Shown here: positions 2,711-57,354 of the stretch, piece after piece | Layout: every line of letters begins with the position of its first letter | Position numbering within the stretch: the first letter of the stretch is position 1 | Program-made: the position numbers and the translations under genes | Notes under the pieces: model-generated | Databases searched by the model: none | What the model saw: only the letters and a program-made list of their open reading frames with translations | What the model was told of the DNA's origin: nothing | Source: Paraspadella gotoi | Lineage: Eukaryota; Animalia; Chaetognatha | Assembly (NCBI GenBank): GCA_051294375.1 | Contig: CM119263.1 | Location: 28,336,549 to 28,400,548 of the forward strand | Length of the DNA: 64,000 nt | Reading direction: 5' to 3'

Positions 2711-3110
2711 ATGTTTCGCGTAATAAAGAGAAACCGGGTGATCGTCTTCGTCCTTTTCCTCTGGTTCGCTTTCTTTTTCTTTCTTGGCAAGTTTCACTTC
2801 GAAAACGGGATAATCGGCGGCCGAAGCGGCGACGTCGGGGGCGGCGTCGGGGGCGGCGTCGGCGGCCTAAGCGGCGACGTCGGGGGCGGCGTCGGCGGCC
2901 TAAGCGGCGACGTCGGGGGCCTAAGCGGCGACGACAGGAGCCTAAGCGGCGACGTCGGGGGCGGCGTCGGCGGCTTAAGCAGCGACATCAGCGGCGACAT
3001 CAGCGGCCGAAAAGGCAACGACGTCAGCGGCCAAAATCGTCGCTTCTTTTTGGATTTAGGCGCCAACACAGCGACGAGCGTGGAACTCTTTCGTTCAACT
3101 TACCCAGAGG
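2711..3110 (+). CDS. Gene 1 exon 1: signal anchor, Gly-rich repeat stem, SAM motif I (FLDLGAN)
   Basis: ATG, basic N-terminus, hydrophobic VIVFVLFLWFAFFFFL, GC-rich coding sequence, donor G|GTAAGG at 3111. Confidence 0.85.
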
Positions 3111-9100: not shown

Positions 9101-12100
9101 GTCTTAAAAAGCTTTGTTTAAAAAAATGAGATTACGTTAATCAAAGCGGTTCCAGCGAGATTCCTCCCACACGGTTCCTCGCCACAGGGATTCCTCTCAC
9201 ATCAGGATTCCTCCAAACGGGATTCCCTTCCTACGGATTCCTCCCACACGGGTCTCCCCCGCTCGGATTACACCTACGTGATTCCTCCCTTGATTTCTTC
9301 CTTCTTTTACTTCGGGAATCTTAATGACCAATGACCATATGAATTTCTTTTTACTACAAATACAGCATTTAGGTAGTAGACAGGATTCTAAGGGAAACCA
9401 AAGTGGATTTTATTTCTTCAAAAAACAAAATTACAAGACGGTGTCAATTCCAGGAAGATGTTCAATGCAAATTGTGACCATTATAATATTTATTGCTCCA
9501 TCGGAATCGGAGGTAAGGGTAGAATTAAAGGCGGAAGATTTGTCTCTTCACCAATGATTCGATTCCGGCGGATTTTACTCGAGTCGCTGATCGATTTCGT
9601 TTCGGCAGTCATTTTGATTCGAGGAATTCAGCAAAAAAAAAAAAACTTTGTGCAATATTGGTAGAATATTATCAACAAAATTGATTAAATTTGACCCTAA
9701 GAAGAAGTGGGTTCGATTACGGATTAATTTAAATCATCTGCTGGCATTTCCTAATCAAGAATCTTATATTTTTGCTACTTTTAATAAAATAAAATATGTC
9801 ATTTTTGTCCATTTTGACCTTTGTCTAGAGATTTGACGCCAAGATCGTTGGAGAAAAATTTTCCGCAAAAATTTGTTGATTTTAACGCTTATTATGGAGC
9901 GTGAAGAATCAAATACTTCACACAGAAAGAAAGAGAAAAAGAGAGAGTTAGAGAGAAAGTTCGAGAAAGAAAGAAAAAAGAAAAGTGGAAAACAAGAAAA
10001 AATGTTTCATAATATAGCATGGCCGAATTTTTGCCTAAGCAGTAGTATATCTAAAAACGCGACCGATTCTACGAACAATTTTATCTTTAAAAGTTGTTCT
10101 TACCATGAAAAATCGTTTTTAGTTTCTTCTTAATATAGTCTGATACCGTAATTGGAATGTTTAACGTGAAAGAAATCATGTCTACCGTGTTTTGAAACAT
10201 AGAAATCACCCAGTGAGTTCATGAAATTTGCAAATTACTTGTTTCACTTTTTCTATTTTTATATTTTTATGAAGATTTAGTTTTAATCTTATTATTTAAT
10301 CAAATATATATTGCTTCTCTTCTTAAAAATGTTTATTTATCTAATAATTCAATTTGGGAAGGGGAAGTCAGTGTTGTCTTCTGGACAATAGAGGAGCATC
10401 TATACAACACAAGGTTAGATTACTATCTGTCCTAGTTTCTAATAGATATCACACATCATTTCTGTTAGAAAGTCATTAATGAAAATCATAATATCAAAGA
10501 GGCTGAACAGAAAGGGGTGGAATGGATAATTTTTTGAGGGGTGACCAAGTTATATTATTGATTTTACCAATAGGGATAAGACTACCATGTAGAATTGTAT
10601 GTTCTGATAGGGATACATACCGGGGAAAGGTCTATAGGGGCACCTTTATGTCATGAATACAATTTTAAAAACATATTTTTTCTTTATTCTACCTTTTAAT
10701 TATTTCTTTTTTGAATATTTTTTATCTTTTATTTTTATACAATGGGAAGGTCATCAGTTGGGAACCTATACCCTTCATGGATTTCGGCTCTTTAATCCCA
10801 ATATCCAGGTATAGGCGAGCCCATCACCAAATGGTGAATCCTTCATTGTTGCCTATCTTATATTTTAAATGTATATCTTGAATGTTTATCTGAACAGACC
10901 AAAGCTCTAGCATCACAGCATTATTAATTTAGAGAAATTTTATTCAGGTTTTGTAATAATTTGTAATTTGTAAATAAATAAATAAGTTAAATAATTAGTT
11001 TAATAATAAGTTAATAATTAAGGGTATATTAATGTAAAGTTAACATTAAGTTAATTGGTAAAAGTTAAAAAATAAATTAAATCAGAGAGTTAAATAAGTT
11101 AAATAAGTTAAATAAGTTATTTAAATAATATTGATGTTATTATTATAATTATTATTTAGTGGTTTATTTTTGTTATTTTTTCCTTATCATTTTATTAGGA
11201 ACTGGCATGTATAATCTTTTTTGAAAATAGATTAACATCAGTAACATTATATTTTTTTATTAGCTCCTTATAATTATTAAAAAATTTAATTCCCATTTCC
11301 CAAGTCCTTAAATATATAACCCTGACTTTGTAGTTTTTGCTTAAATTTATAGCTCTATGTTATAAGGGGAAGATAACTAATGCTAACCATTTTTTAAATA
11401 AAGAGTGTTTCATATTTATCAGTGGGAAAAAAGAATTAATAGTTATTTAAGTTTCAATTTCATTGTTAAAACTACCCGAATCAAAATCACTGCCTTTCTT
11501 GAGATTGATTCCTCTGCGATGACAGGAGGTCCAGCTCTTTTGGGACTAACTTAAAAAAAATTGTTTTGGATTGGGTAAATTAAAAAATTTTAAAAAGTGT
11601 TTTCATGTGTAGGAACTTTATGTAGAGGAATCCCCGTGGGAGAAAACAATAAATCTTGAAAATATCTACTATACAGATTGTAGTAAAATGTTCAACAAAG
11701 ATGGCTTTTAAAGCTAATGCAAAGAAATGTTCCTCTCTGATTTTTGCGTATTATGGTTTACTGGTACTCAAATAAAGGAGGTCTATGGTGGATTAAAATC
11801 CACCAACCGTTCATCAGTGGCCATTGGTGCCGGAGGCAAGTCATTTGCCTCCCAAAAGTCCGGTTTCTAGCCCGCTGGTCGCCTTGCTATTAAGAGGGAC
11901 GGGGCGCTTAACCTGCCTGTAACACACGGTGTTCCAGGCTGATCCGAAGCTCAGGGACTGCTACATTGAACGTTCTGTCACTAACACAACAATAAATTAC
12001 TGTCTCTTCAGTTTCCACTTTGCCTATTTATAAACGCAACTGATATTGAACCAATGAGTTTCAGAGAGAAGTCAAAGTAACAAAGATACTGGTCGGAAAA

Positions 12101-15100
12101 ATAACCAAATGAAGGAAAGGGCGAGGCAAATCTTTGTACAACGCATTTTTAAGAGCAACTTTTTCTCCGGTTTTACTATAGATAAAATCTTTCAGATTAA
12201 AACAAATGTTCACAAGTTTGCAAATGACGATTTTTTTTTTAGCAGCGGGCTGTCGTGTGTCACCTTGTAACTATCTCTCTCCCCTACTTCGAATTGAGAA
12301 TTATTACTTTTTTATCCAAGCGGATATAGTCTATTGAAGGAATCTTGATTTTTCGCAATTGCCACGGTAAACTGATATTGTTCTCAACCGTCCCGCCACC
12401 TGTTCGAGGGATAAGTTTGAGCAAACAATGCCGGATCTGCCCACGATCATAAGCGGTGATCAGCTGATAAGCTAATTAATTAATAATGACAAAAAAATTA
12501 TTTAATTAATTAATTTTTATTCGTTCAAAATCGATGATTCCATCAAAACTTTATTTCTGCTCAATCACACACTTTCCTACCCCACTCAAAATTTTTCATT
12601 CAAATCCATCCATCAAATCACAAGTAATTGGTGTTTTTGCTAAGGTGGGAAGGACAGATAGACAACAGAAGGACGGAAGACGCGGACCCAATTAAAATTT
12701 TTTTTACGTAATTATCATAATTCGAAGTCTGACATCATATAAAGTGAATGCCCGACAAGATTGGGGGGTGAGACCGACGANNNNNNNNNNNNNNNNNNNN
12801 NNNNNCCATTCGCGTGCCGGAGGCAAGTCCAGTTTTGCCCTCCCAAAGCTCCCGCGGCTCTTCTGAGCCCGGTCCCGGTCGCCCTTCCGCCCTACTTAGA
12901 CGGACGGGGCGCTTACACCTGGGCCTGCTAACACGATCCACCACCCGACCACAGACATGTTACACAGGCCTGACCCCAGGAAAGACTCAGGCGCGCCACC
13001 GCGCTGTACACCATCCTGACAACAACGGCTTCCTCTCAACCTAAACCACCACACCAACTAAATTACCTGTCTCTCATTCAGCTTTACCACTCTCTGCCTA
13101 TTATAACACGCACACTTAGATATTAAGAACCACACCCACCCTCCATTGAGTTTCAGAGAGAAGTCAAAGTAACAAAGATACTGGTCGGAAAAATAACCAA
13201 ATGAAGGAAAGGGCGAGCAAATCTTTGTACAACGATTTTTAAAGCAACTTTTTCCCGGTTTTACTATAGATAAAATCTTTCAGATTAAAACAAATGTTCA
13301 CAAGTTTGCAAATGACGATTTTTTTTAGCAGCGGCTGTCGTGTGTCACCTTGTAACTACTCTCTCCCCTACTTCGAATTTGAGAATTATTACTTTTTTAT
13401 CCAAGCGGATATATCTATTGAAGGAATCTTGATTTTTCGCAATTGCCACGCGTAAACTGATATTGTTCTCAACCGTCCCGCCACCTGTTCGAGGGATAAG
13501 TTTGAGCAAACAATGCCGGATCTGCCCACGATCATAAGCGGTGATCAGCTGATAAGCTAATTAATATAATAATGACAAAAAAATTATTTAATTAATTAAT
13601 TTTTATTCGTGTCAAAATCGATGATTCCATCAAAACTTTATTTTCTGCTCAATCACACACTTTCCTACCCACACTCAAAATTTTTCATTCAAATCCATCC
13701 ATCAAATCACAAGTAATTGGTGTTTTTCTTAAGGTGGGAAGGACAGATAGACAGACAGAAGGACGGAACGGACGCGGACCTACCTAATTTTTTCTTACGT
13801 AATTATCATAATTCGAAGTTCTGACATCATATAAATGAATGCCCGACAAGATTGGGGGTGGACCGACGGACCGACAAAGTGAATTATAGAGCCGGAATCT
13901 GCTGGAAGGAATATTACCTAAAAAAAACTCAATCTATGATACTGTTATGCAACATTTTTTTAAAAAAGGTTTAATAATTTTTCATTACACTATACAAATA
14001 CAGCAAAAAAACATTTTTCAATCGCTCAATCTTTCATCACTCCACCAGTCCCATCCCCTACTTATATTTTTGATGGACACCATTTTTGACGGAAATCGAA
14101 AAAAAAAATCACGACGCCTCCCTACCCCTTTATCTTCGTTTCTTTACTATAATTTAATGGATAGATAGCTAATTATGGTAATAAGAGTTTAGGCTTCAAC
14201 GCTCCAGCAGCCCGGCGTGGTTCGCGCGTGGTTGCTGTAAGTAGCTTCAATAATTAGTATAAAGCGGCCCTCAAGCACTACTCATGCTTGTCACTCTCAG
14301 AAGTAGGGCCTGGCGCATCGTTCGACGAAGCCTTCCGATCAAGCACTATCTTTACTATTCTCATCTTATTCCAAAACTGCATACGTCAGCCCATAAATCA
14401 TATCAATATGAGGTACGACCTTCTCACGACACAGCCATTGGCGTCTTGCGGAAGCACACGAGATGTGACTGACGAGCCGCCGATTCCGAAACATCCTCAC
14501 ACCGTCTCTTACATCATGCCTCCAAAAAATGGTATTTAACATGAACTGCGCTCAGCGACCGTTTCTTCCCTCTTCCTCCTCAAACAAACCCTCGCCTCGA
14601 CTCTCCTTCTGTAAAACTAGACAAACACATCATAACACTATCAGTACGGCACTCTCTGGACTCAGCTCTATCTGCGGCCTCTACTACTACTGATAACAAC
14701 AACACAGAAAAGATCTTAAATGCTTCCCGCCAATCTTCGACATTGGCCCTCTGCACTTAACAGCCCACCATCAACATGCAACCTTGGTTCTCTCCTTCAT
14801 TAAACACTGCGACCATAGCTCCAAGCTCTCACATTTTTTTCTTGTCTCTCATCAAAGACACTCGCAACAGAACATGTACTTGTTCTTCACATATGCCTTA
14901 CCGTACCCTGAGCGCCATATAAGTCCAGAAGGCGGGCAACCGCGTAAATTTCTAGAGAATATTTATATTAAACTTTAGAGACATATAGAAAGAGATATCA
15001 AGTTTTTGCCCATCCGGCCTTAAAAGCTTTGTCTAAGGGCCGTTCCCGTCCTGTATTGAAAACTGCGCTTAAGACGATCACTAGCATACTACCCAACTCA

Positions 15101-18100: not shown

Positions 18101-21100
18101 TCGAACCCACTTCTTCTTAGGGTTCAAATTTAATCAATTTTGTTGATAATATTCTACCAATATTGCAAAAAGTTTTTTTTTTTTTTGCTGAATTCCTCGA
18201 TCAAAATGACTGCCGAAACGAAATCGGATCAGCGACTCGAGTAAAATCCGCCGGAATCGAATCATTGGTGAAGAGACAAATCTTCCGCCTTTAATTTCTA
18301 CCCTTACCTCCGATCCGATGGGAGCATATAAATATTATAAATGGGCACCAATTTTGCATTGATTCACTCTTCCTGGAAATTGACACCGTCTTGTAATATT
18401 TTGTTTTTTGAAGAAATAAAATCCACTTTGGTTTCCCTTAGAAATCCCTGTCTACTACCTAAATGCTGTATTTGTAGTAAAAAGAAATTCATATGGTCAT
18501 TGGTCATTAAGATTCCCGAGTAAGAAGAAGGAAGAAATCCCAAGGGAGGAATCACGTAGGTGAAATCCCGAGCGGGGAGAGACCCGTGTGGGAGGAATCC
18601 CGTACGGGAGGAATCCCGTTTTGGAGGAATCCTGTGTGAGAGGAATCCCGTGTGCGAGGAATCCCGTGTGGGAGGAATCTCGCTGGAACCCTTTGATTTA
18701 ACGTAATCTCATTTTATTTGTAAACAAAGCTTTTTGACTTTATTAATCTTGAGTAGTTAATATAAAATTAATAAAATTAAATCAATGACCAAATTCTTTG
18801 AAACGAGGGTTTCCCAAACTCAATTGATCTATTCAGTAATTTGAGTTTAAAGATTACTCACACCCCAGGCATCAAACACGTCCCTCTTTTGCCTAATAGT
18901 TCATATGACTCGTTCTGATTGACTCTGCTTTTTCTTCCAGAACCTTCAAGCCCGAGGACGAGCTTATCCTGAAGATAGACATAGAAGGTTCCGAATATCC
19001 GGTTCTCCACGCGCTCATCGACACTGGCGCTTATCGCCTTGTTGACAAATGGTATCCTGAAAACTTCTTTTCTCGTTTTTAGTCGGATCTGCTAATCAGC
19101 AATCTTGTCGGGCATTCACTTAAATAATGTCAGAACCTCTAATTATTATAAATTATGCCAAAATGATACCCGTTCGTCCGTCTTTCTCTGTCCGTCCGTC
19201 CAACCCTTAACAAAAAACTACTATTACTCGTGATTGCATGGATGGATTGGAATGAAATTTTGAGGACTGTTGACTCTCGGTATTATTAATATGATTGCCA
19301 ATATTAAAAATATTTGTAACATTTTTATCATTGAGATGGGAGTGAAGAATAATTTACCTCGCTTAGGCTCATTATCTGAGTCTCTCTTTTCCTGGTGAAC
19401 CTTTCAATTTTTAGTCTGGTTTCCTGTGATATTGTCATTCGAATCATTGAAACGTCTGCCAGTATGAAAATAAGTTTCTTGGATGCAATAATAAAATATT
19501 CATTGAAGAGACAGTAATTATTGTTATGTGTTAGTGACTAAACCGTTCAATATAAGCAGTCCCTGAGCTTCGGATCAGGCTGTAACACCATGTTACAGGC
19601 GGGTTAAGCGCCCCGTCCCTCTTAACTGCTAGGCGACCACCGGGCTAGAACCCCGGACTTCCCTACCCACAAACAAAATTTCATTGTAATCCATCCATCC
19701 AATCACGAATAATTGGAGTATAATGCTAAGGGGGACGGACAGACGGACGGATAGACACTATTTTTTTGCATAATTACTCCAATTATGAATAATTAAAGTA
19801 ATTTCCACTCGCATGATTCCATCTAATCTTTATATCTAGCTTAGTCCCACACTTTCCTTTCCACACACAAAATTTCATCTCAATCTATCCATCCAATTAT
19901 TATTCATTAGTATAATTATGTGTTAAAATTAGTAAAAAGATTCAAGTAAATGTGACTTATCTTTTTTCCATTTAAACTAGAGGTCCCAGAAATATCATAC
20001 ATTTCTGAAAGTTCCTGATACCTGCAAAGTTTCTTGTACCAAATTTAGTAGAGAAAACGAATATCACAATAAAAAATTTCTCTGGATGCTCATTGTAGAT
20101 TTTCCATGCCAGTTTTTGCGTCGAACCACTTCCGGTTTTAAAAATTCAGGATTTTTAGAAAAAAATAAGCTGTTATTCAGCCAGCATACTTAAATTAATC
20201 AAAATAAAGTTACCAATAACCTTAATATTACATTTTTTGTTTTGGTTTATAAATAATGTTATAAAAATATTATTACAAAAGGCTTGAAGTTAAAAATTCA
20301 TACTTTTTTAAGCTAAATTGGCCCTGACTACTTCACTAATTTTAATAAAATTTTACCATCTGGTTAAACAAATAGAACTGTCTAAGGGATTTTAAATCTA
20401 TAATCTTTAAACAAAGATATTGAACTTTAAAAAGTTTACAGAGTGATGCAAAAAGAAAGTAGCGAATTAGGTGGAAGGCGATTTGGCCTTTGCAGCTAGC
20501 AAGCCTCTCACTCAACCCAAACCCTAAACCGGGCCCTAAGCAAAACCTTATTCTTAATCAGTTTCCCTCGCTTGGGATATCTAACCTAACCCTAGCCCTA
20601 ACAGCTCTGAGCCTCAACTCTAACCCTAATATCTGTCATGCAAGCCTCTCCCTTACCACTAACCCTCCCGGCCATCAATAAGGCCAAACTTTAATCCTAA
20701 ATTTCTTTCCTCAGTACCTTCCCTAACCCTAACCAAAGCTTCCTGTCGTTTTCTGAGCCTGTCCAAATTGCATAATTGCAATACTTAATCATAGCAACCT
20801 GGCCAAATGATAATTTTGCTGTTAGCTATATTTGTGCCATCAAGGTTGAGTACCTTAATGTTAATTTTTAATTTAGGGGTAGGGCAAGGCTTGCTGACAG
20901 ACATGAGGCCTGAATAAGGGAAAAGTAGTGGCCAGGGATGTTAGGGATTAAGGTTTAGCCTTGGCAATGGCTATGAGGCTGGGTTAGGATTGAGGTTGAG
21001 GGAAAGGGATGGACAGGAATTGGCAAAGGCTGTGAGGTTAGTTTTAATCCTTAATTTCCTTCCCAAGTACCTTTCCTAACCCTAACCCAAGCTTACTGTC

Positions 21101-25873: not shown

Positions 25874-28800
25874 GAGAGAGAGTGAAGAAGAAGTTCAAGG
25901 TTAAAGTTTCCAACAAGAATTGAGAAAGGACAGTGGTCAGTGGTGAGGACAGATTTTAGACAAGGCCAGTTTGAATAAGTTGTGAAAAAGAAGTGAAAAT
26001 TTGATGAGAGAGAGAGAGATAGAAAGGTGGGGAGAGAGAGAGAGGAAATATATACAATTACATTTGGCAATGTACAACAGGGATAAAGATAATGGAAACT
26101 TGAAATGTTCTGTCTAATAACAATTTGAAATAAATTAATTTGAATTAATAAGAAATTGAAGATGAAAAAGAAAATTGAAATTTATAATTAAAATTAATAA
26201 TCTGTTTTATTTATTTTTTATTATAATTTTATATTATTTTTTATTTTAAACATTTGTTTTAAAGCCTTATAAGTAGAACTGTATTTTTGTATCTTTATTT
26301 TTAAAAAATATTCTATTTGAAAGTACTAATTGATTAATCTTTTTTTTTTTAAATTTAATTTTTACGTATAATTCAATAATTAAAAATTGTAAAAAGTTGG
26401 GAGAGGTCTCAAATTAAAGTTTATGTTTTGTAGATAATGATAGATATATAAACATTCAAACTGTAAGCACACAGACAAAAATAATAAATAAATATTTTTT
26501 CAAATTTTTTTCAAGATTTAACAATTCATAGCTCCTGAACAAAATTAAAAAACTAATACCTATTTACGCCAATAGAAAGCCCAAGGTTTACTGTAGAGGA
26601 TTTAGTCTGTTTTATACCTTATTTTATATTATTTTCAAAGTTATAAAGGGAAAATAAAAAAATGTGACTTAAAAATGCCGAGAATTCGCTTTTTTAAACA
26701 TCAATAATTGGAAAAGTATTTTTTGGATTTTTAAAAATAAAGTATGTAAAATGAAGTATTTTTTCCGCTTTTTAAATTGACGCAGGTTAAATTTGATTCC
26801 GACTGATATTTTTTAAGATATCTATCATTTTTAATGAAAAAAAACGGTTTTTTGCAAATTTTGAAGAGTTGCAAGCACTTATTGATCGATTTTTCAAAAA
26901 ACAAAGATAGAAAAAAATTAGTAGCATATAGGGGACTAATTTGTACTATAGTGCTAAATTCTGTAAAAAACTTTATAAAATTTGCTAAGGCCTAATGACC
27001 ACTGAGCGTTGCATGCTCTGCTATAGCGGACATAATATGCCCACGCGCGTCTCTGTAGGGTCTGACGTGCTGCTGGAAACGGTCTGAGAGAGACTTGTCT
27101 GTCTCGCCCACATATGCTGCTGCACAGGGTTGGTTGCCCGAAACATGTCTGCTAAGATACAAAAATAAAATCGTTGTACAAATTAAATCAAAACTTTGTT
27201 ATTCTCTCAAAAACAAAGAAAGAAAGGATTATACCATGAATTTTTTTTCTTAAAATCTTAAAATTTTTTGATGAATTCTGATAGAGCATAAAAAGTTAAA
27301 CAAGAAATATAATTACAGCTTTTAAAAATTCTTATGTTTTCTGAGCAAAAATCTAAAAAAACTGATAAAATCATCAAAAGATGATAATGATGACAATTTT
27401 TTATGGTTTTTCTTATTTTTGACATATTTATGATAAAAATATTTAAAAAAGAATTATACTTAATATGAGCTATCTGAATCTGGTCTTAAAATTTAAAATT
27501 TCTTAAAAAAATTTTGGGCCTTTCCTATCTATAAATGAATATATAAAAATTTTTTTGTCCATAGATAGTATACTTAAAAATGTATAAATTTTCGTTTGAG
27601 CTTGTACCCACTCTAAATTTTTGACTCACCCCATTGAGTTTCTCTCTCTCTATCTCTCTCTGATTGATTGATTGACCAAATTATTCCAGTTGACCAAACT
27701 TTATCAGTTGACCAAATTATGCCAGTTGACCAAATTATGCCGGTTGATAAAATTATGCCAGTTTAGCAAATTATGCCAGTTTAGAAAATTATGTCAGTTG
27801 ATCATATAAAGCCAGTTGACCAAATAAAGCCAGTTGACCAAATTATGCCAGTTGACCAAATTATGCCAGTTGACAAAATTATGCCAGCTGCAAAAATAAT
27901 GCCAGTTGACCAAATTATGCAAGTTGACCACATTTTGCAAGTTGACTTAATTATGCAAGTTGAAAAAATTATATCAGTTGACCAAATTATGCCAGTTGAC
28001 AGAATTATGCCGGTTGACCAAATTATGCCAGTTGACAAAATAAAGCCTGTTGACCAAATTATGCCAGTTGACAAAATTATGCCAGTTGAGAAAATAATGC
28101 AAGTTTACCAAATTATGCAAGTTGACCACATTTTGCAAGTTGACTAAACTATGCAAGTTGAAAAAATTATATCAGTTGACCAAATTATGCCAGTCAGGGA
28201 TGTGGAGCCGAGCCTTTTGTTTTTTCCATCTTAACTCATTTCCACTCGGACGATTCCTTCGAAACTTTTTTTCCTGCTCAATCACACACTTTCCTACCCA
28301 CACACAAAATTTCATTTCAATCCATCCATCAAATCACGAGTAATTGGTGTTTTTTGCTAAGGTGGGACGGACAGACGAACAGACAGATGGACCGACATCA
28401 TTTTTTTTGCATAATTTATCATAATTCGATGTTCTGACCTGATATAAGTGAATGCCCGACAAGATTGGCGGGGCAGAACGACGGACCGACAAAGTGAATT
28501 ATACAGCCGGAATCTGCTGTAAGCAGATCTGGCTAAAAAGGTGAAAATAATTGACAAAATTTGTAAGCCAAAAAACTTATTGCATAATTTTAATTTCCAT
28601 TTATCTCTGTTGTTTCCATTATGGTGGACTAAAATCCACCAACCGTTTATCAGCGGCCATTGGTGCCGGAGGCAAGTCATTCGCCTCACAACCCAAAGGT
28701 CCGGGGTTCTAGCCCGGGGGTCACCTAGCAGTTAAGAGGGACGGGGCGCTTAACCTGCCTGTAACACGGTGTTACAGCCTGATCCGAAGCTCAGGGACTG

Positions 28801-31800
28801 CTTATATTGATCGGTTCTGTCACTAACACATAACAATAATTACTGTCTCTTCACCATCAAAGAACATCCTCCACACCCTCTTGGTTCTCACGCGTACCCT
28901 TCCTACTTGCAGGTGAAGTTCCATTTTTAAACTGGAATCATAGGCATTTAAATTCTCGAGGCAAATCTCTCATAACTGCGGGAAAAACATTCGCCAGCCA
29001 CGGCCTCTCTCCTCATCTGTTGCTGACCGATGCGTGGAATGTGTCGAAAGAACTCCTCGATCAGGTTTTAATTTTATTGCTAATTACTTTTGTTGTCCCT
29101 GGTATTATCTTCAACTATCATTGTCAGTCTTATTTATTATTACTGTTGCTGAAATATAGGACATTTTACAACTAAAACTATTTTTTAGCAGACTGCAGCT
29201 CATAAGCATTACAAATGTAATTGGCCTTGTCAAACCAGTTGCATTTCCGTAACAATTTTTAGATTAAAATCCATCAAATACTCTTAAATCCGGAAAGACT
29301 ATGGTGAACTCTGTCAAGAAAGGCCTGTGACCATCATTATATTATTATATTATCATATTATTATGTAATCAAGAAGCTGAAAAAAAAATCCTTTGGGTTT
29401 TCTGAAAGATTTGAATTTTTTAAAATTGATAAAAAGTTAATTCCGACATTTCTGAGAGCTGATAACATGTGATATAATCGTTTTATTTTAAAAATAAAGA
29501 AATCATAAAAAACTGATTAACTGTATTCATTTGTAAAGTGACAGTACGCTTGAGACACTCTGTATTTATCTTATTAAATTCTATCGTCTTTTTTTTTACT
29601 TCGGCGGTGTATAAATTTTATTACTCGTAATAACTGTTAATCTAACAATAAAACCCTTAATAAAGCATTCAAAGATAACAAAATATAAGATATTTAATTC
29701 CCTTCATAATTATTTTAATGTAATAAAGGTCTGAATAATTCTACGATGATAATTATTTTTATCTGCTTATCAGCAGATTCCTACTCTATAATTCACTTTG
29801 TCGGTCCGTCGGACCACCCCCAAAATAACTCATTTTTATCATATCAGAACATCGAATTGTGATAAATTATGCAAATAAATGATGTTCGTCCGTCCGTCCG
29901 ACTGTCTGTCAGTCCGTCCCCCCTTAGCATTAAACACCAATTACTCGTGATTGGATGGTTGGATTGGAATAAGATTTTTTGTGTGGGTAGGAAATTGTGT
30001 GATTGAGATAGATATAAAGTTTCGATAGAATCGTGCGAGTGGAAATGGGTTTAAATGGAAAAAGCAAAAGTCATATTTACTTGAAGCATTTACTTATAAC
30101 TGTTATATTTATTAAAAATAGGATAGATAAATTGAAATGAAATTTTGTGTGTGGGTAAGAAAGTATGTGATTAGGCTGGATATAAATTTTTTATGTAATC
30201 ATAGGAGTGGAAAAGAGTTTAAAATAGAAACTAAAAGACATTTATTTCAATTTTTAAAAGTTTCTCTCTCTCTCTCTAATTGTTCGATTTATTGATTGAT
30301 TTACCAAATTATGTCAGTTGACCAAATTATGGCTATTTACCAAATAATGCAAGTTAACCAAATTATGCCGGTTGACCTTATTTTGAAAGTTGAAAAAAAA
30401 ATATACCAGTTGACCAAATTAAGCCAGTTGATTATATTATGCAGACATTGTTTGCTCAAACTTGTTTGTATACTTTTATCTTCCTTTTGGGAAATGGCGA
30501 TTTTTGAAGCATAAAAGCTGCTATGAAATGGCTCTAACATTGTGGAGTATGAAAAAATCAAATGATTAAAATTTTATAAAAGTCATATTTAGCTAAAATA
30601 ATATGAAAATATAGACCCATAAAAATATTTTGGTAAGTTTATTTACAAATTTTATATTTTATTAACAGATTTTTCGCTATATTTATTAATAATTAGTAGT
30701 AAATATAGGCTAAAATTAAAAAAATTAAAATTTTAAACCGGATGCCGATTTGAATTTCTTGCACAGATTTCAACAAATTCTTTTGGTTAAAAATAATAAA
30801 AACTATAATAATTTTTTTTTAAATTTAAGTTTACTTTTACTCATAATTATTAATAAATATAGTGAACTTTTAGAGAGAAAACGAAAATTTCGTTATAACA
30901 ACAAGTGAAATTATTAATTCGGACATGTTTCGACTCTTATGTTTTTGTGAGTCTTCATCAGCAAGCAATTCAATAACTGTATGGTGAACTAAAATCCACC
31001 AACCATTCATCAGCGGCCATTGGTGCCAGAGTCAAGTCATTTGCCTCCCAACCCAAAGGTCCGGGGTTCTAGCCCGGTGGTCGCCTAGCAGTTGAGAGGG
31101 ACGGGGCGCTTAACCCGCTTGTAACACGGTGTTACAGCCTGATCCGAAGCTCAAGGACTGCTTATATTGAACGGTTCTGTCACTAACACATAACAATAAT
31201 TACTGTCTCTTCAACTATTCACCGCGACCACTCGCTGGTTTAGTAGTGGGTAGAGACCATGCGGCGATGCAGGACCAAAGAGGGAGCCAATGTGACCGTG
31301 GGGAGGACCGGGTGGGAGGTCACCGAAAAGGCATGGCGAGAAGGGTGGGACGGTGGGCCATGACGCGGACATGAAAAGAAAAGAGGGGGAGAACAATTAG
31401 TGTTGCTGCACAGTACCAGTACTTGTACACATGCAGTCGCCATGCACACTCGCACTCGTTCCAGGGGATGATTTCACTCACCGGGTGAGACAGCGATGAG
31501 GTCCTACGGGGGGAATAGTGGACACAGACGCTCTGCACACGGCGATCGAGTTGGCAGACGGAACCATATGGAGTAAGACCGTCGGCGAGAGGAGTAACGG
31601 CGCCGTTGGGAGAATCAGCGGGAGAGACGTCCGGCATGGTGTAAGGAGTCCAATTAAAAATTTGATAAAAAACTGGGAACAAAAACATGAGAAAAAGGAA
31701 ACAAAGAAAAAACGAAAAGGGCGAAAACGAAGGAAGAAAAGGTCGATGGGGAGAGGGGGGGACACAAGGGACGAATGTTCTGAGGGAGCGAGTGCAACAA

Positions 31801-34800
31801 CGAGTGAAGGAGTCAACCGTGAGACGGGATGATTTCACTCAGCTGGTAAGACAGCGAGGAGGTCCTGCAGGGGGAATAGAAGAATAAGTAATGAGGGATA
31901 GATAAGTTAAAGGTAAGTGAAATGATAAGATAAGAAAGAGCTCAAAATGAGCTGTGGGGGCGTTACTCGCAAAAACATGAGAGTCGAAACATGTCCGAAT
32001 TAATAAATTCACTCGATGTTATAACGAAATTTTCCATTTCTCTATAAACTCTCCCAATTGACAAAAAAGAAAGTTCAAATACAATGTCAGCTAACTTTTA
32101 ATGAAATATAAAATTTAAAAATAAACTTACCACATTATTTTCATAGTTCTTTATTTTTTTTAATATTAGTATTTTATATACATTAAAAATCGTCATCTCC
32201 GACATGAAAGATAAAATTAGACAAAAAAAAATGGTCATCACCATCGAATTCTTCAGACCTTATTACAGTAAAATGAATAGAGTTAATATCTTATATTTTG
32301 TTATCTTAAAAAGCTCGACTCCTTAAGCTTCACCACCCTAACCCTAAACCTCCCATAACCCTAAAATCCCGCTGACCCAAGTCGGCTAATGTAAAAATAA
32401 GCAGCTTTGGCCTTTTGTAAATTTCAAATTTTGTTAATTTTAACTTTTTCTTATAAAACTTTAAAAATTTAAATGAAATCTGTTAATATCAGTTTTAAAG
32501 AAATGATTATAAGTTGGTTTAAAAGAAAAAAGTTGAAACACAATTTTTTCCTCTTCAACCCAATCAAAGGCGAAACTTCGTGGGCTCCGCGTCGTTCGAC
32601 CGACTATAGTATTTCCTCCTCTGCATCCCGATTCGCCGTACAAGGTATCATAAATATTAGTATTAATTAATATTTCTTAACGGAGAAATTTATTACACAT
32701 AATTACATAATACTTACACATTCATCTTTTTAATTATTATATATAAAAGCCAAATGTTCTTTTTTTATGTACGTAACTAAAATAACAAAATGCATTTGTA
32801 CAACTCTTCTTGTTTGGTTCCTTTTTGTCCGCTGAACAGTGAACACGCTTGTATCTTTAAAATCCCAATAAGTTGAATGGAAATGAACTCACTAACGCCA
32901 GAAAGTGATAGAGTTCAATCGCTGTTTGGCTCGAATTTTAACATAAAAGATTTAGAGATGAAACGAAAAATTCGTTGTAATAGCAATTTTTATTTTTATT
33001 ATTTGGTAAAAAAAAATACAATGTTTCGACTCTTAGTGTTTACGAGTCTTCATCAGCAAGTGAATTCAATAGACCAAATTTTTTAAAAACATTAGTTTGA
33101 GAGAGAGGAGAAAGAAGAGAAAGAGAGTTTCCAACAAAGAATTGAGCAAGGATAGTGGTCAGATGTGAGGACAGGTGAAAGTAGGGAAAGAGAGAGCAAA
33201 TGATTTTTGAAATGGTGAAAAGAAAGAGAAAGAGAGAGAGAGAGAGACAGGGATCAATACATTAGCAATGTACAAAGTTAAAAATTTTAGAAAAAACTAA
33301 ATATTTAACAAAAGTAATAATAAATTAATTGTTAGCTGATGATTGTTAGTAAGAAAAATGAAATAGAAGAATAAGTGATGAGGATAGATAAGTTAAAGAT
33401 AAGTGAAATAGTAAGGTAAGAAAGAGCTGGGGGGGCGCCAGCTCATTTTTGAGCTCTTTTCTTACCTTTACTATTTTACTTATCTTTAACTTATCTATCC
33501 CTCATCACTTATTCTTCTATTTCATTTTCTCTTACTAACAATCATCAGCTAACAATTAATTTATTATTACTTTTGTTAAATATTTAGTTTTTTTCTAAAA
33601 TTTTTCACTTGTTGTACATTGCCTAATGTATTGATCCCTGTCTCCTCTCTCTCTCTCTCTCTTTCTCTTTCTTTCCACCAATTTCAAAATCATTTGCTCT
33701 CTCTTTCCCTACTTTCACCTGTCCTCACATCTGACCACTATCCTTGCTCATTTCTTTGTTGGAAACTCTCTCTTTCTCTCTTTCTCTCTAAACTAATGTT
33801 TTTAAAAATTTGGTCTATTGAATTCACTTGCTGATGAAGACTCGTAACACTAAGATAGGGGGAGACTAACTCAATAAGGTGGTTAAGAAATTGAATTAAG
33901 CACCTCCTCAAACGAAAATTTTAGACATTTTAAAAATTTGAATTGACAAATTTTTTATATTACTCCATACTCCATATATTAATTTTTAATATTTATTTAT
34001 AATAGAAGGCTAAAATTTTTTTTTGGATTTTTTGATTTTTAAGATCAGATTCACGTAGCTTGCAAAAAGTTGTCTACACAAAGTATAATTCTTTTTCGAT
34101 ATTTTGATCATAAGTATGTGAAAATATGAAATACTATTTATAATCATCATCATCATCATTTTTCAATAATTTTATTACTTTTTCTTAATTTTGACCAGAA
34201 AGAAACATAAATTTTTTTTGAAAGTTGTAGTTAAATTTTTTATTTAACTTTTTATGCTCTATCAGAATCCATCAAAAGTTAAGATTGATTAAAAAAAATT
34301 TTATCATTATTATGTAATATTGTAATTTTAATAGCAACAATAAAAGCATTAAAATCGAACTTTTTTAAAAAATTCTTTTTTTACCTAAAAGTAGACTTCA
34401 AGACTAAAGTTTTGAACCCCCGCCCCTATTGAATTTAATTTCATAGTAGATTTCTAACTAAGAGTCGAAACATGTACAATAATAAAAATAAAAATTGCTA
34501 TTACAACAGAATTTTTCGTTATAATCTCTAAACTATTTTAAATAGCAAAAAAGAAAGTCAAAATACAACATAAAAGATAAATTAAATTTTAATTATTCTT
34601 TTCACAGAAATGTTTAAATCTTTATATTTTAGTTAAATTAATTATATATTTCTTGAGTATTTGTTAAAATTTAATTTTTTTTAATAAATTTATTACAAAA
34701 TTTACATGAATCTACACGGTTCTTTTTATAGGAGGAAAAAGAAAATCTAAATATACCATTTCTGGAAAAGATGAAAAACCTGAAAGGTTGCTGTCAGGAC

Positions 34801-37800
34801 AAGAGCTTGGGCTAAATCGAAAAATTATTTCAAACTCATTTTTTTTAATTGCATTTGAAGTTGGTAAGTTAATTTTTGAGAAAATTTGATGACTTTTGTA
34901 CTAATTTTGCAAAATATAGACTCAATTCAAACATCTATATGTCAAACGATATCAGTAAACCGAGAGCTTATATTTAAGACCACTCCCAGCTTTCTGCGAC
35001 TTTTGGCTAAAAAGTTATTAATCAAAATATGTTATTTTTTCTTTAAAAAAGTAATGAAATGGTGAATATTATTGAGAATATAATAAGACTTTAATCTAAA
35101 ATAATTGAGGATACCTACGAGTGCTATAGACATTTTTTTTTCAATTAATTCATAAATAAAATTTTTCTTCAAGCTTAAATATAGGCACATCATCCCCCCA
35201 AAAAATTGAAAAAATATTAATTAAAATTTTTAATAATTTACCATAATGATATGATATAATTTTACTCAATATATATGGACTAGAAACTATAGGATGTGAC
35301 CTTCATTTTGAGCCTATTGCCAACTCTTTATGATAAATATTTATTGAGATACTACCAAAAAAGCCCTAAAAATCTTTAAAAAATATAATTTTTAATTTAT
35401 TTAAGTCATTTTTCAGTTCATATATGACTTATTTTAAGTCAAATGATTTTATTCAGCAGATTAAAGAGTAAGGCACATATAAAATACAATTAGTAGTATT
35501 ATTTTATAATAATTTAATCAGGACAATTAATTTTCAGCCAATTTTTACCAAAATTACAACTTTTAATTTTTACAGCAACAAAGGACTAAAAAAAGTAAAA
35601 AATTTTTGATGATAAAATCTGTAAGCCAAAAGACCTTAGAATGTATCATATAGGATTAAAAAATTTTCTTATAAAGATTTAAAAATAAAAAAATTATATA
35701 TATAAATTAAAGATTGAAGAAAAATAATGATATTACAGTTAGTTTTATATTATTGATCATGATTCTATGTTAGAAAAGATAGCCATCTTTTTTAACCACT
35801 AATTATTAAAAGTTTTAGTTACTTAAAAGAGTAAGTAATTTTTTTTAAAAAAATTTATATTATAAAAACTCTCTTCCTTATAAAAAAATCGATAATTTGG
35901 TAAGAAATAAACAAGTTTGAGCAAACAATGTCGGATCTGCCTACGAAAAATAATTAATTAATTAATCGATTAATTAATTAATTAATTATAATATTTAATT
36001 ATAAATTTATATACAGCTTATCATCATCAATGTCCTTAAAATGAAGTAAATGTGACTTATATTTTTCCATTTAAACTCATTTCCACTGGCACAATTCCGT
36101 CAAAACTTTATATCTAGCTTCTTCACAAACTTTCCTTCCCACTCACAAAATTTCATCTCAATCTATTATGGGTAAATAAGTAAAAAGAGTCAAGTAAATG
36201 TGACTCATATTTTTTTCATTTAAACTCATTTCCACTTGTACCGAAACTTTATATCAAGCTTCGTCACACATTTTCCTACCCCCACACAAAATTGAACTCA
36301 ATCTATCCATCCAATTATGATTAATTAGAGTATTTATTTGTTAAAATGTGGATAAGGCGCTAAGTGGGCTGAAGATGACTATCCGTAACTTCTATAACCC
36401 CCTTTAGTAGCCATGGAACGGGTCCTGGGCTTGGAACCAGGCTTGAGGGGTTGCCACGCCCCAAGGCGGCTTACGGCCGTCCTCACGCTTCCCACAGGGT
36501 AGGTACTGGGTTGGGATTGAACCCGGTACCTAGTGGTCATGAGCTGATGGCTTTACTCAATGAGCCACCGGGTCAGGACTGAAGGTGTCATGCTTATAGG
36601 CGGGGTGAACCTAGGCAATGCCCGACTACATGCCCCCCAGATTGTAACCCACCCTGCACTGCTTCCAGTGGAGGGAGGGAGCAATCTTCAGCACGTCCAT
36701 GGGCCTGGAATCAGAAGGTTGGAATACGCTCGACAGGATGGGCTCACCAGTGTGGATAAGGCGCTAAGTGGGCTGAAGATGACTATCCGTAACTTCTATA
36801 ACCCCCTTTAGTAGCCATGGAACGGGTCCTGGGCTTGGAACCAGGCTTGAGGGGTTGCCACGCCCCCAAGGCGGCTTACGGCCGTCCTCACGCTTCCCAC
36901 AGGGTAGGTACTGGGTTGGGATTGAACCGGTACCTAGTGGTCATGAGCTGATGGCTTTACTCAATGAGCCACCGGGTCAGGACTGAAGGTGTCATGCTTA
37001 TAGCGGGGTGAACCTAGGCAATGCCCGACTACAAAAATAAGTAAAAAGATTTTAGTAAATGCGACTTAAGGTTTTTCTATTTAAACTCATATCCACTCAC
37101 ACGATTCCGTTGAAACTTTATATCCAGCTTCATCACACATGTTCCTACCCATACACAAAATTTCATTCCGATCCAACCAGCCAATCACGAGTTATTGGGG
37201 CTTTTTGCTAAGGTGGACGGATGGATGGATTGATTGACTGATTAATTAATTATTGATTAATTAATTGGCTAATTGATTAATTAACTGATTAATTATTTGA
37301 TTTATTATTACATCCTGCATATACATTTAATATAAAAGGAAAAAAATCATAATCAATTAGTGTAACAGGTTTTTTGTTTTTTTCCATTTAAACTCATTTC
37401 CACTCAAACGATTCCATCGAAACTTGGTTTCCTGTTCAATCACACACTTTCCTACTCACATACAAAATTCCAGGTCAATCGCCCCATCCACTCGTGAGCA
37501 ATTGGTGTTCAAATCGTGAATTATATTTTTTTGTTTTTCCATTTAAACTCATTTCAACTTGGACGATTCCATCGAAACTTTATATCCAGCTCAATCCCAC
37601 AATTCCCTACCCACACACAAAATTTCATTCAAATCCATCCATCCAATCACGAGTAATTGGTGTTTTTTGCTAAGGTAGATGGACGGACAGACGGACGGAC
37701 ATCAATTTTTTTGCATAATTTATCATAATTCGATGTTCTGACATGATATAAGTTAGTGCCCGACAATATTAAGGGGGCTAACCGACGGACCGACAAAGTG

Positions 37801-42100: not shown

Positions 42101-42374
42101 TCCTCTTCACCCCCTCTCTCCCACACTCCTCCCCATAAGACGTAATAATCCCAGCTAGACGGGATATCCAAAGTCTGATGGGGGTAATCCCTCCCTCTGA
42201 GTCTGATGGAGGTAATCCTGATCAGACGGGAAACCAGATGAACTAATCCTTACGAAGCAAAAAAAAAAAAAAAAAAATCCTCCGCTCATCATTTCCTCAT
42301 AAAAGTTATAGCCATGTTTTTTTTTAGATTAAATTCAGAATTATGTTAGTTTTAAATTTAAAAATTAGGTCAGG

Positions 42375-42525
42375 AGTTAGGGTTATGGATTAGAATAAGA
42401 ATTAGAGTTAGGGTTAGGGATTAGAATAAGAATTAGAGTTAGGGTTAGGGATTAGAATAAGAATTAGAGTTAGGGTAAGGGATTAGAATAAGAATTAGAG
42501 TTACGGTTATGGATTAGAATAAGAA
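42375..42525 (+). repeat. ~31-bp minisatellite (GGATTAGAATAAGAATTAGAGTTAGGGTTAG), about 4.5 copies
   Basis: Direct tandem repeat. Confidence 0.85.
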
Positions 42526-43772
42526 TCATTGTTAGAAATGATTTTAATTCAAACAAATTCTCTTCGTGAATATCTGAATCACGTCAATTGGTTTTAGTCT
42601 CAACTTTAATGATTTTATATTATCTTTACTCTCATTGGTCGAATTCTACCAATAGTAGTTAATGATTGAATTCTCAATAATTTTAAAGAAGATCTCTCTT
42701 CTCATTGGTCCATTAAATTTAGTCTTTGTATAAAAGAAAGGGCAACTTTTATTTTTTGAAGAGATTGCCCTGGGACCATAAGGTAATTGATTGATTAACT
42801 GAAATTATTAAATAGTGGAATTAGTATTAATAAATGGTTATTTTTTGTAGCTTTTGAGCTTCCACAGCTCTTCCAATGGCTCTTCCACAGCTCTTTCAAT
42901 GGCTCTACTGATTGCTATTTCGATTGTCCTTATAACTGTCAACTGAATTACAACTAACTTCAATTAATACTAATGGCGTTACGGTTATTGATGAGTCAAC
43001 AATAGAGAAATTAATATGAAGGATGCTCAATCGTGTTCCCAAGTCCGTAAGGAAATGTGCAATCTCTAACAATCATAGTTATGGATTAGGTTAGGAGTAG
43101 GTTTAAGAAATAAGGGAAGGGATTAGGGAAATAAGGATATAGTCAGGATAAAGAATTACGTTATGAACTTTAAGACTAGCGTTAGATATTAAAATTAAGT
43201 TCTGCACTAAATGAAAAACTTTCGGAAAATAGTCGTTAAAACTATTTTTAGCGTCTCATTTCGACGTCTGTGACATTATTTCCGTCACCTCTTCTGGGAT
43301 ACAAACACAAACCGCCTCCACATTCTGCAATGCCAGAATCCGCCAACGCAAAGGCTGTCATTTTCCCTTCCCGTCCGGACGAGTCAATGTTTGTCCCGCA
43401 AATGCAAAACAGCTTCTCTCTTCGCGCTAATCAATCCAGTTCTCTCTGTTGTCGTCTCTTCTCTTTTCTTCTCTTTTCTTTTCTTTTCTTTTATTCAATC
43501 TTTTTTTCTTCTCTTTTTTTGCTTTTTTTTCTTTTCTTTNNNNNNNNNNTCTTTTCTTTTCTTTTCTTCAATCTTTTATTCTTATCGTTTTGATTATTTA
43601 GTCGCCGTCGTTTTGTTGTGTTACTTACAGCTAATCATTTCACTTTAGCAATTATTTATTTTCTTATGAAGTGATTAACTATCAAAGTCGATCAAATTAC
43701 GATAAACATGACCAAGCACAGATGAAAGTAAAAGTTTAGTGATTTTATGGGCGGAGAAACTTTTTAGAAAAA

Positions 43773-44570: not shown

Positions 44571-46119
44571 ATCCTCCATTGACTGGGTTTTAATCCTAAT
44601 CCACCTAATCCAATGGTTTTTAATCTCAGAGAATCCTCTCCACTCTTTTCCTCCTTACCCACCAAATCCACCACCCCCCCACACTTCCCCCCCCCTTTGA
44701 CTAAAACGCGGATCGTTTCTTTCCTTCGCTTCATTTTCTTTTTCGCTTCACTTGATTTCCTTCCCCTTTTTTTTGTTTCAGATGAGTCTTACCCGTTCTA
44801 AGCTTTACTCACCCCTTTCATCTCAGACTTACTATATGATTCAGGTTTTTTCCTTATCAATGAGCGTGTAGAGGGGTGGACCCCCGCCACAAAACCGAGG
44901 AGCCCGGGCCATTGGGGGTTACGGGAGAAATTCGTTGGGCTGAAAAAAAAAAATAGAATAAAAAAAAATGACACATTACGTTGAGTATTAACATTGACAA
45001 GCTCTTAATTTTGTGTAAAAGACTATTTTACAAGTTTAAATTTCAAAACCTTAAAAGAACATAGGTATTAAGAAACTTTTTTTACTTCAATATTTGCACA
45101 TTAAAATAAAATTATATCAATAAAGGTTCTAAAAAACACTTGTCACTTATTCTTATTTTGTTTAGCAGAAAGTTGCGGAAGCAGAAGGCTGGTATCGATT
45201 CTAAGAGAGAAAAAAAATAGGATGAAAAATCCATTTCTGGGTTAGTGAGACTGTTGCAAACTTCTTTCCTTAATATATATTTTTAAAGAAACCTTTAAGG
45301 TTCACACTACATTGGCGATTAGATTAGGTTTTTTTTTCATTTAGATCAGTTATTTATATTTATTTATCTATTTATGAGCACCTAAAAATTCTAAACCACA
45401 AAATCGGTTTGACCTAAAAATAGTATTACGATTCTGAAACGCTCTACTTTGCGAACCAATCGACCGACGCTACATTAACAAGCCGGTTCCGCCAAGCAGT
45501 GGCGGTTCCGCCGCCGCCGCCGCTGTTGCCGCCGCCTCCGCCGCCGCCGCTTCCATTTCGACGCCAATATTCTCGTCGTATCGAATTCATTTTTTTTCCA
45601 ACCCAAAAGCCTCGACAAACATTATGACGTTGTTGGTTTTCGTTTACACTCGAACGCTAAAAACGAAACATCGTCGACGAAGAGATAAAACAGTTTTGTC
45701 TTTTTTTTTTACGAAAACCGAAACGGAGAAGAAACAACTGAGATGTTGAAAGAACGAAACGAACAAAGAGAGTGTTGGACTGTTGGAACTACAGATGACA
45801 CAACATCAGGGGAAAAAGAATAGTTTGCGATCTGCGGCACTGACCGCAAACTTTCATCGTACATTTTGTAAAGATTGTGAGCAATGAGGTAATACGGCGT
45901 AATATGAACACTATGTAGAGCGCAAAACTTAAAGTGAACGTAAAATGATTTACCATGCAAACTTAACTTACTAACAAACTAATTAAAACCACTTACAAGC
46001 TAACTTAATTAACTAACCACCTAATTAACTTACCTAAGTAAAATAAACCAATTAATTAAACCAAAAAAATAAACTAAGCAACTATTTAAACCAGAGATCC
46101 CTCCACCACCATTTCTACC

Positions 46120-55939: not shown

Positions 55940-57354
55940 ATGTCAGTCGAGATTCTCAGCATGGGTCTTCCGCAACAATTCGCCGCCAAATCCTGGGAAT
56001 TATTCGCTTTAATTTTGGAAAATTCACAAGTCGACGGCTTTGATCACGTGATCGATTTTGGATGCGGAACGGGGGAGACGACGCAGCGACTGGCCGAATG
56101 GGTGGGAGAGTACAATCGCAAAATTGGACGGGCTGGGTAAAGAAAAATATTCATTTATAACCAGAGAGGGAAAACGTTAAATCTGTTTTCCACATCATAA
56201 TAACAGGGGTCTTCATTAACTTTTACTTTTTCAGTTCCAAACTTTTCATCACCGGCACAGACGTATCCGCTGTCGAAACGTCCTTCTGCGAAAATGTATA
56301 TTCCTCGTCCACTGATGTCTCAAAGGCGGAGTTCTTTTTCAAAGCTGCCGACATCGGCGACAGTACGACGATGGCTCCGGAGTGGGAGTCGGCCTTCGAC
56401 CTGGTCACAAGTTTTTGGACGAATCATTCGGTCAAAAATCAAGAGGAGATTTTGAAAAATATTCATTTCTGCCTGAAGCCAGGGGGATATTTCTGTCTCT
56501 ATGATCAAACGGGATTCGATGCGATTCCTGGTTTGTTGCAAGATTACTTGTTTTACTATATTATACTAAATTAGACAAAATTTTTTAAAGAATAAGAAAG
56601 GTTTTAGTCTAACATATTTCACTCAAGTATTAAAATTTAACTTAAATTATTATTTGATTCATTTCATATTGAATTGTGTAATGGGAAGAGGGTTGTTAGT
56701 GTTGTCTTCTGGAAATGGACGGAGCATCTATATAACACAAGGTTAAAAATTACTTTCTGCCTTGTTTTCTAATAAGATATTTTGAATTTGATCATCACAT
56801 CGGGATATTATTTTAAGATTTATGAATCTAATTTATAAACATTTCTATTTGCTTAAGCGGACTACGATAAGGAATTGAAACATTACCGAATGACAAAGGG
56901 TAAGTGATAATTCACAAATAAACGAACAGACATACAATTCTAAGCAAAGAAAAACTTTCTCTCATCAGTCGGCCTCGGGATGCTTCCCAAATGGTCACAA
57001 TACCTTCCCGCCGGTGGCCTCAGCGAGCTCGTATTCCCCGGTCAAGCGGCCTATCAATCATGGGGTCGCCCTGACCCGGCCGCCGGTTACACCACCATGG
57101 TCTTAGAGGCGGGATTCCGCGTCATTTCCGCCCGCAACGAATTCTTTCGCTACGATTACAGCGAGGAAGAGTTGGCGACGACAGTCAAGCATTTCTCCCG
57201 GCGGGTGGAAGGTCTGCCCTCGGAATACCTCGAGGAATTCGTGGGAGATTTCGTGTACGAGTACAAGAGGCTCTTTACTCGAGAGGAAAGCGATGAGTGG
57301 AGAAAATTGAAAGCGGACATGGGAGTCATTGTTGTTGTGGGACGAAAACTTTGA
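55940..57354 (+). CDS. Class I SAM-dependent small-molecule methyltransferase, JHAMT-like (~292 aa)
   Basis: Exons 55940-56136, 56235-56530, 56969-57354 with GT-AG and matching phases; motifs VIDFGCGTG, ITGTDVS, AADIG, FDLVTSFWTNH, LKPGG. Confidence 0.9.

Follow-up and report, generated by a model that had tools for sequence, protein, structure and literature searches.

The element and its copies in the window

The DNA analysed here, referred to throughout as the window, comprises 64,000 nucleotides of the chaetognath Paraspadella gotoi (assembly GCA_051294375.1, contig CM119263.1, positions 28,336,549 to 28,400,548 of the forward strand; coordinates below count from its first letter). On the forward strand at 28620-28853 it carries a 234-bp repeat that begins with TATGG, ends with TTCA and is flanked on each side by CCAT. 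This repeat and its copies are called family B, to set them apart from a second repeat of the window, family A, a terminal-repeat retrotransposon in miniature (TRIM) with two long terminal repeats (LTRs). The LTRs of family A share with family B a tRNA-like segment followed by a fold resembling the twister ribozyme. The family B element and its relatives are:

28616-28619, +: left target-site duplication (TSD), CCAT
28620-28853, +: family B element, likely a solo LTR, 234 bp, TA...CA ends (sharp depth edges and unrelated loose contig ends in four sequencing runs)
28854-28857, +: right TSD, CCAT
30980-31213, +: full copy, 94%, with ACTG/ACTA at its flanks and a single broken pair in P4 (BLAST)
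11784-12010, +: full copy, 88%, inside an error-prone region (BLAST)
19504-19658, −: copy without the first 79 bases (element positions 80-234, 95%), twister core intact (BLAST)
2304-2367, −: copy with an internal deletion and a truncated 3' end (BLAST)
8201-8352, +: mirror of the 19504 copy within an inverted duplication, not an independent insertion (BLAST)

The original prediction, made from the sequence of the window, had given the length, ends and flanks of the element correctly, and the copies that it placed at 2305, 11784, 19504 (mirror 8200), 28620 and 30980 were recovered by BLAST. These amount to five independent loci, since the remaining matches sit in duplicated stretches. A 7.4-kb inverted duplication (4648-11823 versus 23223-15963; 93% identity, many small indels) contains the family B matches 8201-8352 and 16002-15963, and a noisy duplicate of the 11784 copy was found by BLAST at about 12814-13080. 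A noisy direct duplication of 11985-12779 at 13050-13868 lies near an N gap. Both the inverted and the direct duplication are probably artefacts of long-read assembly that inflate repeat counts. In the copy at 2304-2367, the first 13 bases of the element are fused to the region of the predicted cleavage site through a TAA microhomology. Several joints in sequencing-run contigs fall close by, at most a weak hint.

A TSD of 4 bp had also been proposed. It is perfect at 28620; the flanks of the 30980 copy agree at three of four bases (chance of at least three, 0.064) and those of the 11784 copy at two, or at three if the flank of its mirror is used. Together these flanks suggest a 4-bp TSD across family B. 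The element has no terminal inverted repeat, which rules out a miniature inverted-repeat transposable element. The copies at 28620 and 30980 were considered as the LTR pair of one element and rejected: the former has its own TSD, no primer-binding site (PBS) follows it, and other repeats lie between the two.

The tRNA-like segment

28622-28641, +: 5' hairpin preceding the tRNA-like part
28653-28724, +: tRNA-like segment, likely an RNA polymerase III (Pol III) promoter, with acceptor-like stem, A box and B box

The predicted acceptor-like stem is present and is seen when the 30980 copy is folded. The B box (28706-28714) has one mismatch to the usual pattern, and the segment is presumably tRNA-Gly-like. 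No tRNA was called by ARAGORN in this segment. TTTT is absent from the LTRs of both families. The view that this is not an ordinary tRNA-derived short interspersed nuclear element (SINE) stands: 33 bp precede the tRNA part, both ends are fixed, there is no tail and, as described below, sequencing depth shows no step at the predicted cleavage site. Unlike a SINE2 element, it begins ahead of the tRNA head, stops at a fixed point, 28853, and lacks a tail.

The twister fold

Directly after the tRNA-like segment lies a fold with the parts of a type-P5 twister, a class reportedly described by Roth et al. in 2014:

28727-28802, +: type-P5 twister fold (descriptor, folding, alignment)
28727-28732/28797-28802, +: P5
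28736-28739/28754-28756, +: P2
28740-28741, +: GA
28742-28744/28784-28786, +: T1 pseudoknot
28745-28750, +: self-complementary 6-mer GGCGCU in the position of stem P1
28751-28752, +: predicted cleavage site U/A (descriptor; site as defined in PMC8501958)
28757-28758/28789-28790, +: T2 pseudoknot
28759-28777, +: P3
28778-28782/28791-28795, +: P4

The fold was searched for with a twister descriptor taken from the element table of PMC8501958 and permuted to type P5. On both strands of the window the descriptor matched three family B copies and the two family A LTRs and nothing else; the 30980 copy fails through its single broken P4 pair. No match arose in 100 block-shuffled windows or in 20,000 shuffles of each LTR. 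The fold and its cut site between 28751 and 28752 were thus recovered as originally proposed, and cleavage at U28751/A28752 is predicted by this model of the fold. The UAA site, the GA, T1, T2 and the AAGC of L4 conserved in twisters are all present in family B. Families A and B have in common the catalytic G and A, the UAA, T1 and T2, and the AAGC of L4, while the surrounding pairs vary.

Six twister cores were aligned with MAFFT and trimmed to the core, an alignment of two lineages whose shuffle control ignores kinship. Pairing is kept in 97.5% of its cells, against 22-49% in slid controls. Between the families, both sides have changed in eight of 20 pairs. T1, P3 and the P1 segment contribute two such pairs each, P2 contributes one, and the last is the pair closing P4. 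The core alignment bears out the covariation proposed with respect to the TRIM, namely CCG/CGG in family B versus UCC/GGA in family A at T1, and A-U versus G-C at the P4-closing pair. The further claim that the fold is under selection is supported between the families; within family B, neither the run contigs nor the core alignment showed a compensatory double change.

In place of stem P1 both families have a 6-mer (GGCGCU in B, CGGCCG in A) that is too short to close a normal hairpin but is self-complementary. Self-complementary 6-mers make up about 4-5% of all 6-mers, and the two have self-duplex energies of −8.3 and −10.7 kcal/mol. The palindromic P1 suggests, from its sequence, that two LTR ribozymes may pair with each other. 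P1 is reportedly dispensable for twister cleavage (PMC5408937), so a monomer may still cut. In P2, most copies have a third pair that either forms around a bulge or is mismatched; a change in P2 length might disrupt the twister active site, according to PMC5408937. The original prediction was silent on the 3-nt P2 strand, the abnormal P1 and the precedents discussed below, Helenus (TRIMp3) and the retrozymes.

Against the Rfam model Twister-P5 (RF02684), family A scored 17.1 bits (E 0.089), below the 37.6-bit threshold, with P1 aligned around a 0-nt loop. No hammerhead core was found in the LTR of either family. A model built from the core matched no third family of this kind in the window, and pattern scans for the element or fold gave no matches in metagenome contigs and viral contigs. 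A weak Rfam match to COG3860 (E 1.5-2.4) was treated as chance.

Relation to family A

36347-37033, −: family A TRIM, two 284-bp LTRs (98.9%), 120-bp interior, AAAA flanks
36739-36749, −: PBS-like tract beginning with TGG, 1 nt past the 5' LTR
36631-36638, −: polypurine tract (PPT)-like G run ahead of the 3' LTR

Family A is 687 bp in all, and its LTRs have TG...CA ends and the same tRNA-then-twister layout as family B; its AAAA flanks sit in A-rich DNA. Cleavage is predicted at U36878 and U36473, which would give a unit RNA of 405 nt. No link between the two families was found by BLAST, and what similarity their LTRs have lies in the tRNA and twister segments only: local alignment beats shuffles in the tRNA part (0 of 1000 shuffles as good) and in the twister part (7 of 1000), whereas the 5' part (586 of 1000) and the 3' part (850 of 1000) align no better than shuffles.

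Genome-wide copies in sequencing-run contigs

Contigs from four of nine listed sequencing runs were placed on 28500-28980, and depth ratios were computed for three of them (not for X8). Depth rises at 28619/28620, falls after 28853 and is flat in between, at 1.5-6 x 10^4 times that of the unique flanks; summed contig depth is not copy number, and as an order of magnitude this ratio corresponds to roughly 10^4 family B copies genome-wide. The loose contig ends at both edges run into AT-rich DNA that is mutually unrelated (agreement about 0.4), and no tail is seen. The ratio of depth 5' to 3' of the predicted cut site is 0.96, 0.85 and 1.13 in the three runs. Depth is thus similar on either side of the site, and copies do not begin at the cut; both ends are base-exact, lying 132 nt upstream and 102 nt downstream of it, with no gradient of 5' truncation. 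If a SINE carried an active ribozyme internally, it would be expected to lose its head (PMC5786205), and the absence of such loss from the depth profile makes the element unlike a monomeric SINE of that kind.

Among the contig variants C>T and G>A changes predominate, many of them at CpG, which fits decaying copies. Those in the acceptor-like stem keep its pairing (28721 T>C, 31% in run X1; 28724 C>T, 13% in X1 and 47% in X2), the common P5 variant 28727 A>G keeps its pair, and the variants at 28766-28767 lie at the tip of P3. The frequent variants at 28721, 28724 and 28727 look like subfamily markers. In five contigs (four from X1, one from X2) the 3' end of the element is joined back to its 5' end with unknown sequence in between. 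An apparent clustering of deletion joints at the cut site (five of 13 in-element joints at 28748-28757; P 0.002-0.12) was not used as evidence: it was noticed post hoc on 15 of 78 joints (the 13 exclude one forward skip that lands ahead of the element and the go-back joint), P varies with the choice of window, and a private letter at 28756 introduces bias.

Comparison with known systems

Animal Helenus elements (TRIMp3; Kojima 2024) have tRNA-like LTRs, 4-bp TSDs, solo LTRs and, in some cases, TA starts; a Gypsy-type helper has been proposed for them, and their Pol III transcription is putative (PMC10886601). Family B resembles them in its short non-coding 234-bp LTR, its tRNA-like segment with the B box best kept, its flanks, which suggest a 4-bp TSD, and its many solo copies; family A does so in its two LTRs with PBS- and PPT-like tracts and its 687-bp length. 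The differences are the twister fold directly after the tRNA part and an LTR without TTTT. Family B is known here from single-LTR copies, and the two-LTR form from family A only. The words "twister" and "self-cleav" do not occur in the text of PMC10886601, and in the parts of its supplement that were available (1 and 5-9 of 11), where most Helenus LTRs end shortly past the tRNA part, no twister was seen by eye. Two Helenus elements of the wasp genus Synergus, Helenus-2_SyJa and Helenus-2_SyUm (PMC10886601 DataS1, in part), have two LTRs and a 4-bp TSD. Inspection by eye of their LTRs shows what reads as a complete type III hammerhead downstream of the tRNA part; it has three helices, and its loops share a long complementarity. 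This hammerhead is unremarked in the available text of PMC10886601, and its position is that of the ribozyme in family B.

LTR retrozymes, which in the literature at hand belong mainly to plants and use type III hammerheads, carry a ribozyme in each LTR and a non-coding interior with PBS and PPT, and show 4-bp TSDs and solo LTRs (PMC4918200, Cervera et al. 2016, in part); a promoter has been reported within a plant retrozyme LTR (PMC9695139, in part). The elements described here share a putative ribozyme in each LTR, PBS- and PPT-like tracts (family A), flanks that suggest a 4-bp TSD, likely solo LTRs (family B) and a predicted unit-length circle. They differ in having a twister fold instead of a type III hammerhead, an animal host, a likely tRNA-derived internal promoter and a smaller size (LTR 234-284 bp, unit 405 nt).

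With the type-P5 twister (RF02684) the fold shares the order P5-P2-GA-T1-P1-UAA-P2-GC-P3-P4 together with UAA, GA, T1, T2 and L4 AAGC; it departs in that P1 is a 6-mer, P2 is one pair short, and T1 and the P4-closing pair are off consensus. The T-variant twisters of Perere-3 (RTE) are of type P1 and set where a non-LTR element begins at its 5' end (PMC8501958, Liu et al. 2021, in part). They resemble the present fold as twisters of a retroelement with a weak P1 and a similar P3 base, whereas the fold described here is permuted, lies inside the element and has its cut site far from either DNA end. The SINE-like repeats of Schistosoma (PMC6765202, in part) have a similar layout, with a self-cleaving ribozyme downstream of a Pol III promoter, but they are tandem non-LTR elements with a type I hammerhead and without PBS or PPT.

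No twister in a TRIM LTR was found in the literature searched, most subscription papers being outside reach, and the available parts of PMC8782182 and PMC13570524 hold nothing on twisters in LTRs; the comparison also drew on parts of PMC7761336, PMC8557442 and 10.64898/2026.07.22.740005. Within that literature, a twister in a tRNA-bearing LTR appears to be new, and the retrozyme design is in print only for plant elements with another ribozyme.

Interpretation and alternatives

That the family B element is an LTR we regard as probable. The original prediction of a solo LTR from a related TRIM remains the likely one, qualified by the findings gathered below. The fuller reading that we favour, with moderate confidence, is that family B consists of solo LTRs of a Helenus-type TRIM carrying a type-P5 twister, whose RNA would be cut in both LTRs and circularised in the manner of plant retrozymes. 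Pol III would initiate in the 5' LTR, at its tRNA-like segment, and read through, and twister cleavage at U/A in each LTR would free an RNA of unit length, which in family A is 405 nt, with a 5'-OH and a cyclic phosphate, to be closed into a circle by a host ligase. A Gypsy-type reverse transcriptase and integrase would then copy it from the tRNA-primed PBS and insert the product with a 4-bp TSD; solo LTRs would result from LTR-LTR recombination or from short complementary DNAs, and the LTR or circle route would restore the 132 nt upstream of the cut. The unit RNA would retain one whole promoter, so that cutting would cost nothing. The palindromic P1 may pair two LTR ribozymes as in dimeric hammerheads with a weak helix III, a group that cleaves as dimers in the sources at hand.

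Several findings weigh against this reading. A perfect 4-bp flank repeat is present in only one of the three complete copies (28620; chance 0.0055), the A box (about 28661-28672) is degenerate, and the window yields neither a two-LTR copy nor a PBS or PPT for family B. The joints of 3' to 5' end in the contigs fit tandem arrays equally with two-LTR copies. The covariation comes from two lineages in a core-trimmed alignment; the 5' strand of P2 has 3 nt in both families versus four in the consensus; and family B carries A-U at the P4-extending G-C pair, which is essentially invariant in twisters (PMC5408937, in part). Rfam searches with the window, with 28500-28950 and with 28720-28810 returned no twister match for family B, and none appeared at E up to 10; the unit circle of family A, at −141 versus −130 ± 7 kcal/mol for shuffles, gains only modestly in stability.

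The best-surviving alternative, which we nevertheless consider unlikely, keeps the Helenus-type TRIM solo LTR but holds that its twister-like fold has stopped cutting and now serves as a structural signal, for instance as a GC-rich palindrome that dimerises or packages RNA. The short P2, the A-U at a near-invariant G-C, the abnormal P1 and the blank Rfam result for family B all speak for it, as does the self-pairing of the P1 6-mers at the energies given above. It has to contend with a catalytic G and A, UAA, pseudoknots and L4 AAGC that are invariant across the families while nearby pairs change, and with a stem P1 that cleavage reportedly does not need (PMC5408937).

It is rather improbable that family B is instead a tRNA-headed non-LTR element, either like the hammerhead SINEs of Schistosoma or a retrozyme monomer driven by Penelope, amplified from tandem masters or circles and having no interior with PBS and PPT. 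Such an element would account for the missing family B interior in the window and the head-to-tail joints in five contigs, and it has parallels in the Pol III promoter and ribozyme of the Schistosoma repeats (PMC6765202, in part) and in MRC1, a Penelope-derived element formerly misfiled, in the source at hand, as a non-autonomous LTR element. Hammerheads presumably of Penelope type are also present in the window. Against it stand the base-exact ends 132 nt and 102 nt from the cut, with neither tail nor 5' truncation gradient, a flank repeat of 4 bp and not a long one, and a sister family A with two LTRs and PBS- and PPT-like tracts.

A third possibility is that the family B LTR belongs to a longer element in which 30980 is the 5' LTR, 31214-31879 the interior and the 3' LTR is lost (the size class would change, the LTR identity would not). 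We consider it very improbable. In its favour, the 666 bp have 54% GC versus 35% in the window and contain purine tracts as well as a 54-bp direct repeat (31465-31518, 31826-31879) whose end is a PPT-like run, and the ACTG/ACTA flanks agree at three of four bases (chance 0.064). Against it, no PBS beginning with TGG follows 31213, no LTR stands behind either purine run, and inverted Penelope-type repeats (30869-30952, 31965-32048) enclose the stretch, which may be part of them. The reading frames of 31214-31879 matched no Pfam family at cut-off, and the stretch may be a family B interior or the body of a Penelope-like element.

Building on the favoured reading of a cutting twister in a Helenus-type LTR, one may tentatively propose a wider group of animal Pol III retrozymes, in which LTRs with tRNA promoters have convergently acquired a twister (the two families here) or a hammerhead (Synergus Helenus-2). 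In the twister version the palindromic P1 would make the two LTR ribozymes of a single transcript pair and cut jointly. Only full-length RNA with two LTRs would then become the circle that serves for reverse transcription, and transcripts of the tens of thousands of solo LTRs would be cut poorly. We consider this proposal rather unlikely.

Other features of the window

Minimal hammerhead motifs of type I occur at 30961 (−), 33056 (−), 25791 (−) and 22773 (+)/22738 (−), the last mirrored at 5100/5133. Their helix III is palindromic, many of them form inverted pairs, and they are presumably of the Penelope-like pseudo-LTR type. Further features are:

46090-48945, +: DEG/ENaC (ASC) channel gene, exons
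56161-57354, +: SAM-dependent methyltransferase gene, exons
27600-28266, 30259-30443 and 58811-59763: 18-19-bp minisatellite family
2795-3023: GC-rich 9/12-bp repeat with open frames
42314-42561: 31-bp tandem repeat with TTAGGG

Implications

The element unites three things that are separate in the literature searched: the LTR retrozyme, the tRNA-bearing TRIM and the retroelement twister. In that literature tRNA-bearing TRIMs lack a ribozyme, and retroelement twisters sit at the 5' end of RTE long interspersed elements. The element offers a possible answer to how a Pol III unit inside an LTR acquires defined RNA ends without a terminator, and another to the source of retrozyme transcription. 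It would also supply a natural twister with a P2 of three pairs and possibly a dimer-dependent P1. Twisters of this kind escape current Rfam models and may consequently be under-counted in animal genomes.

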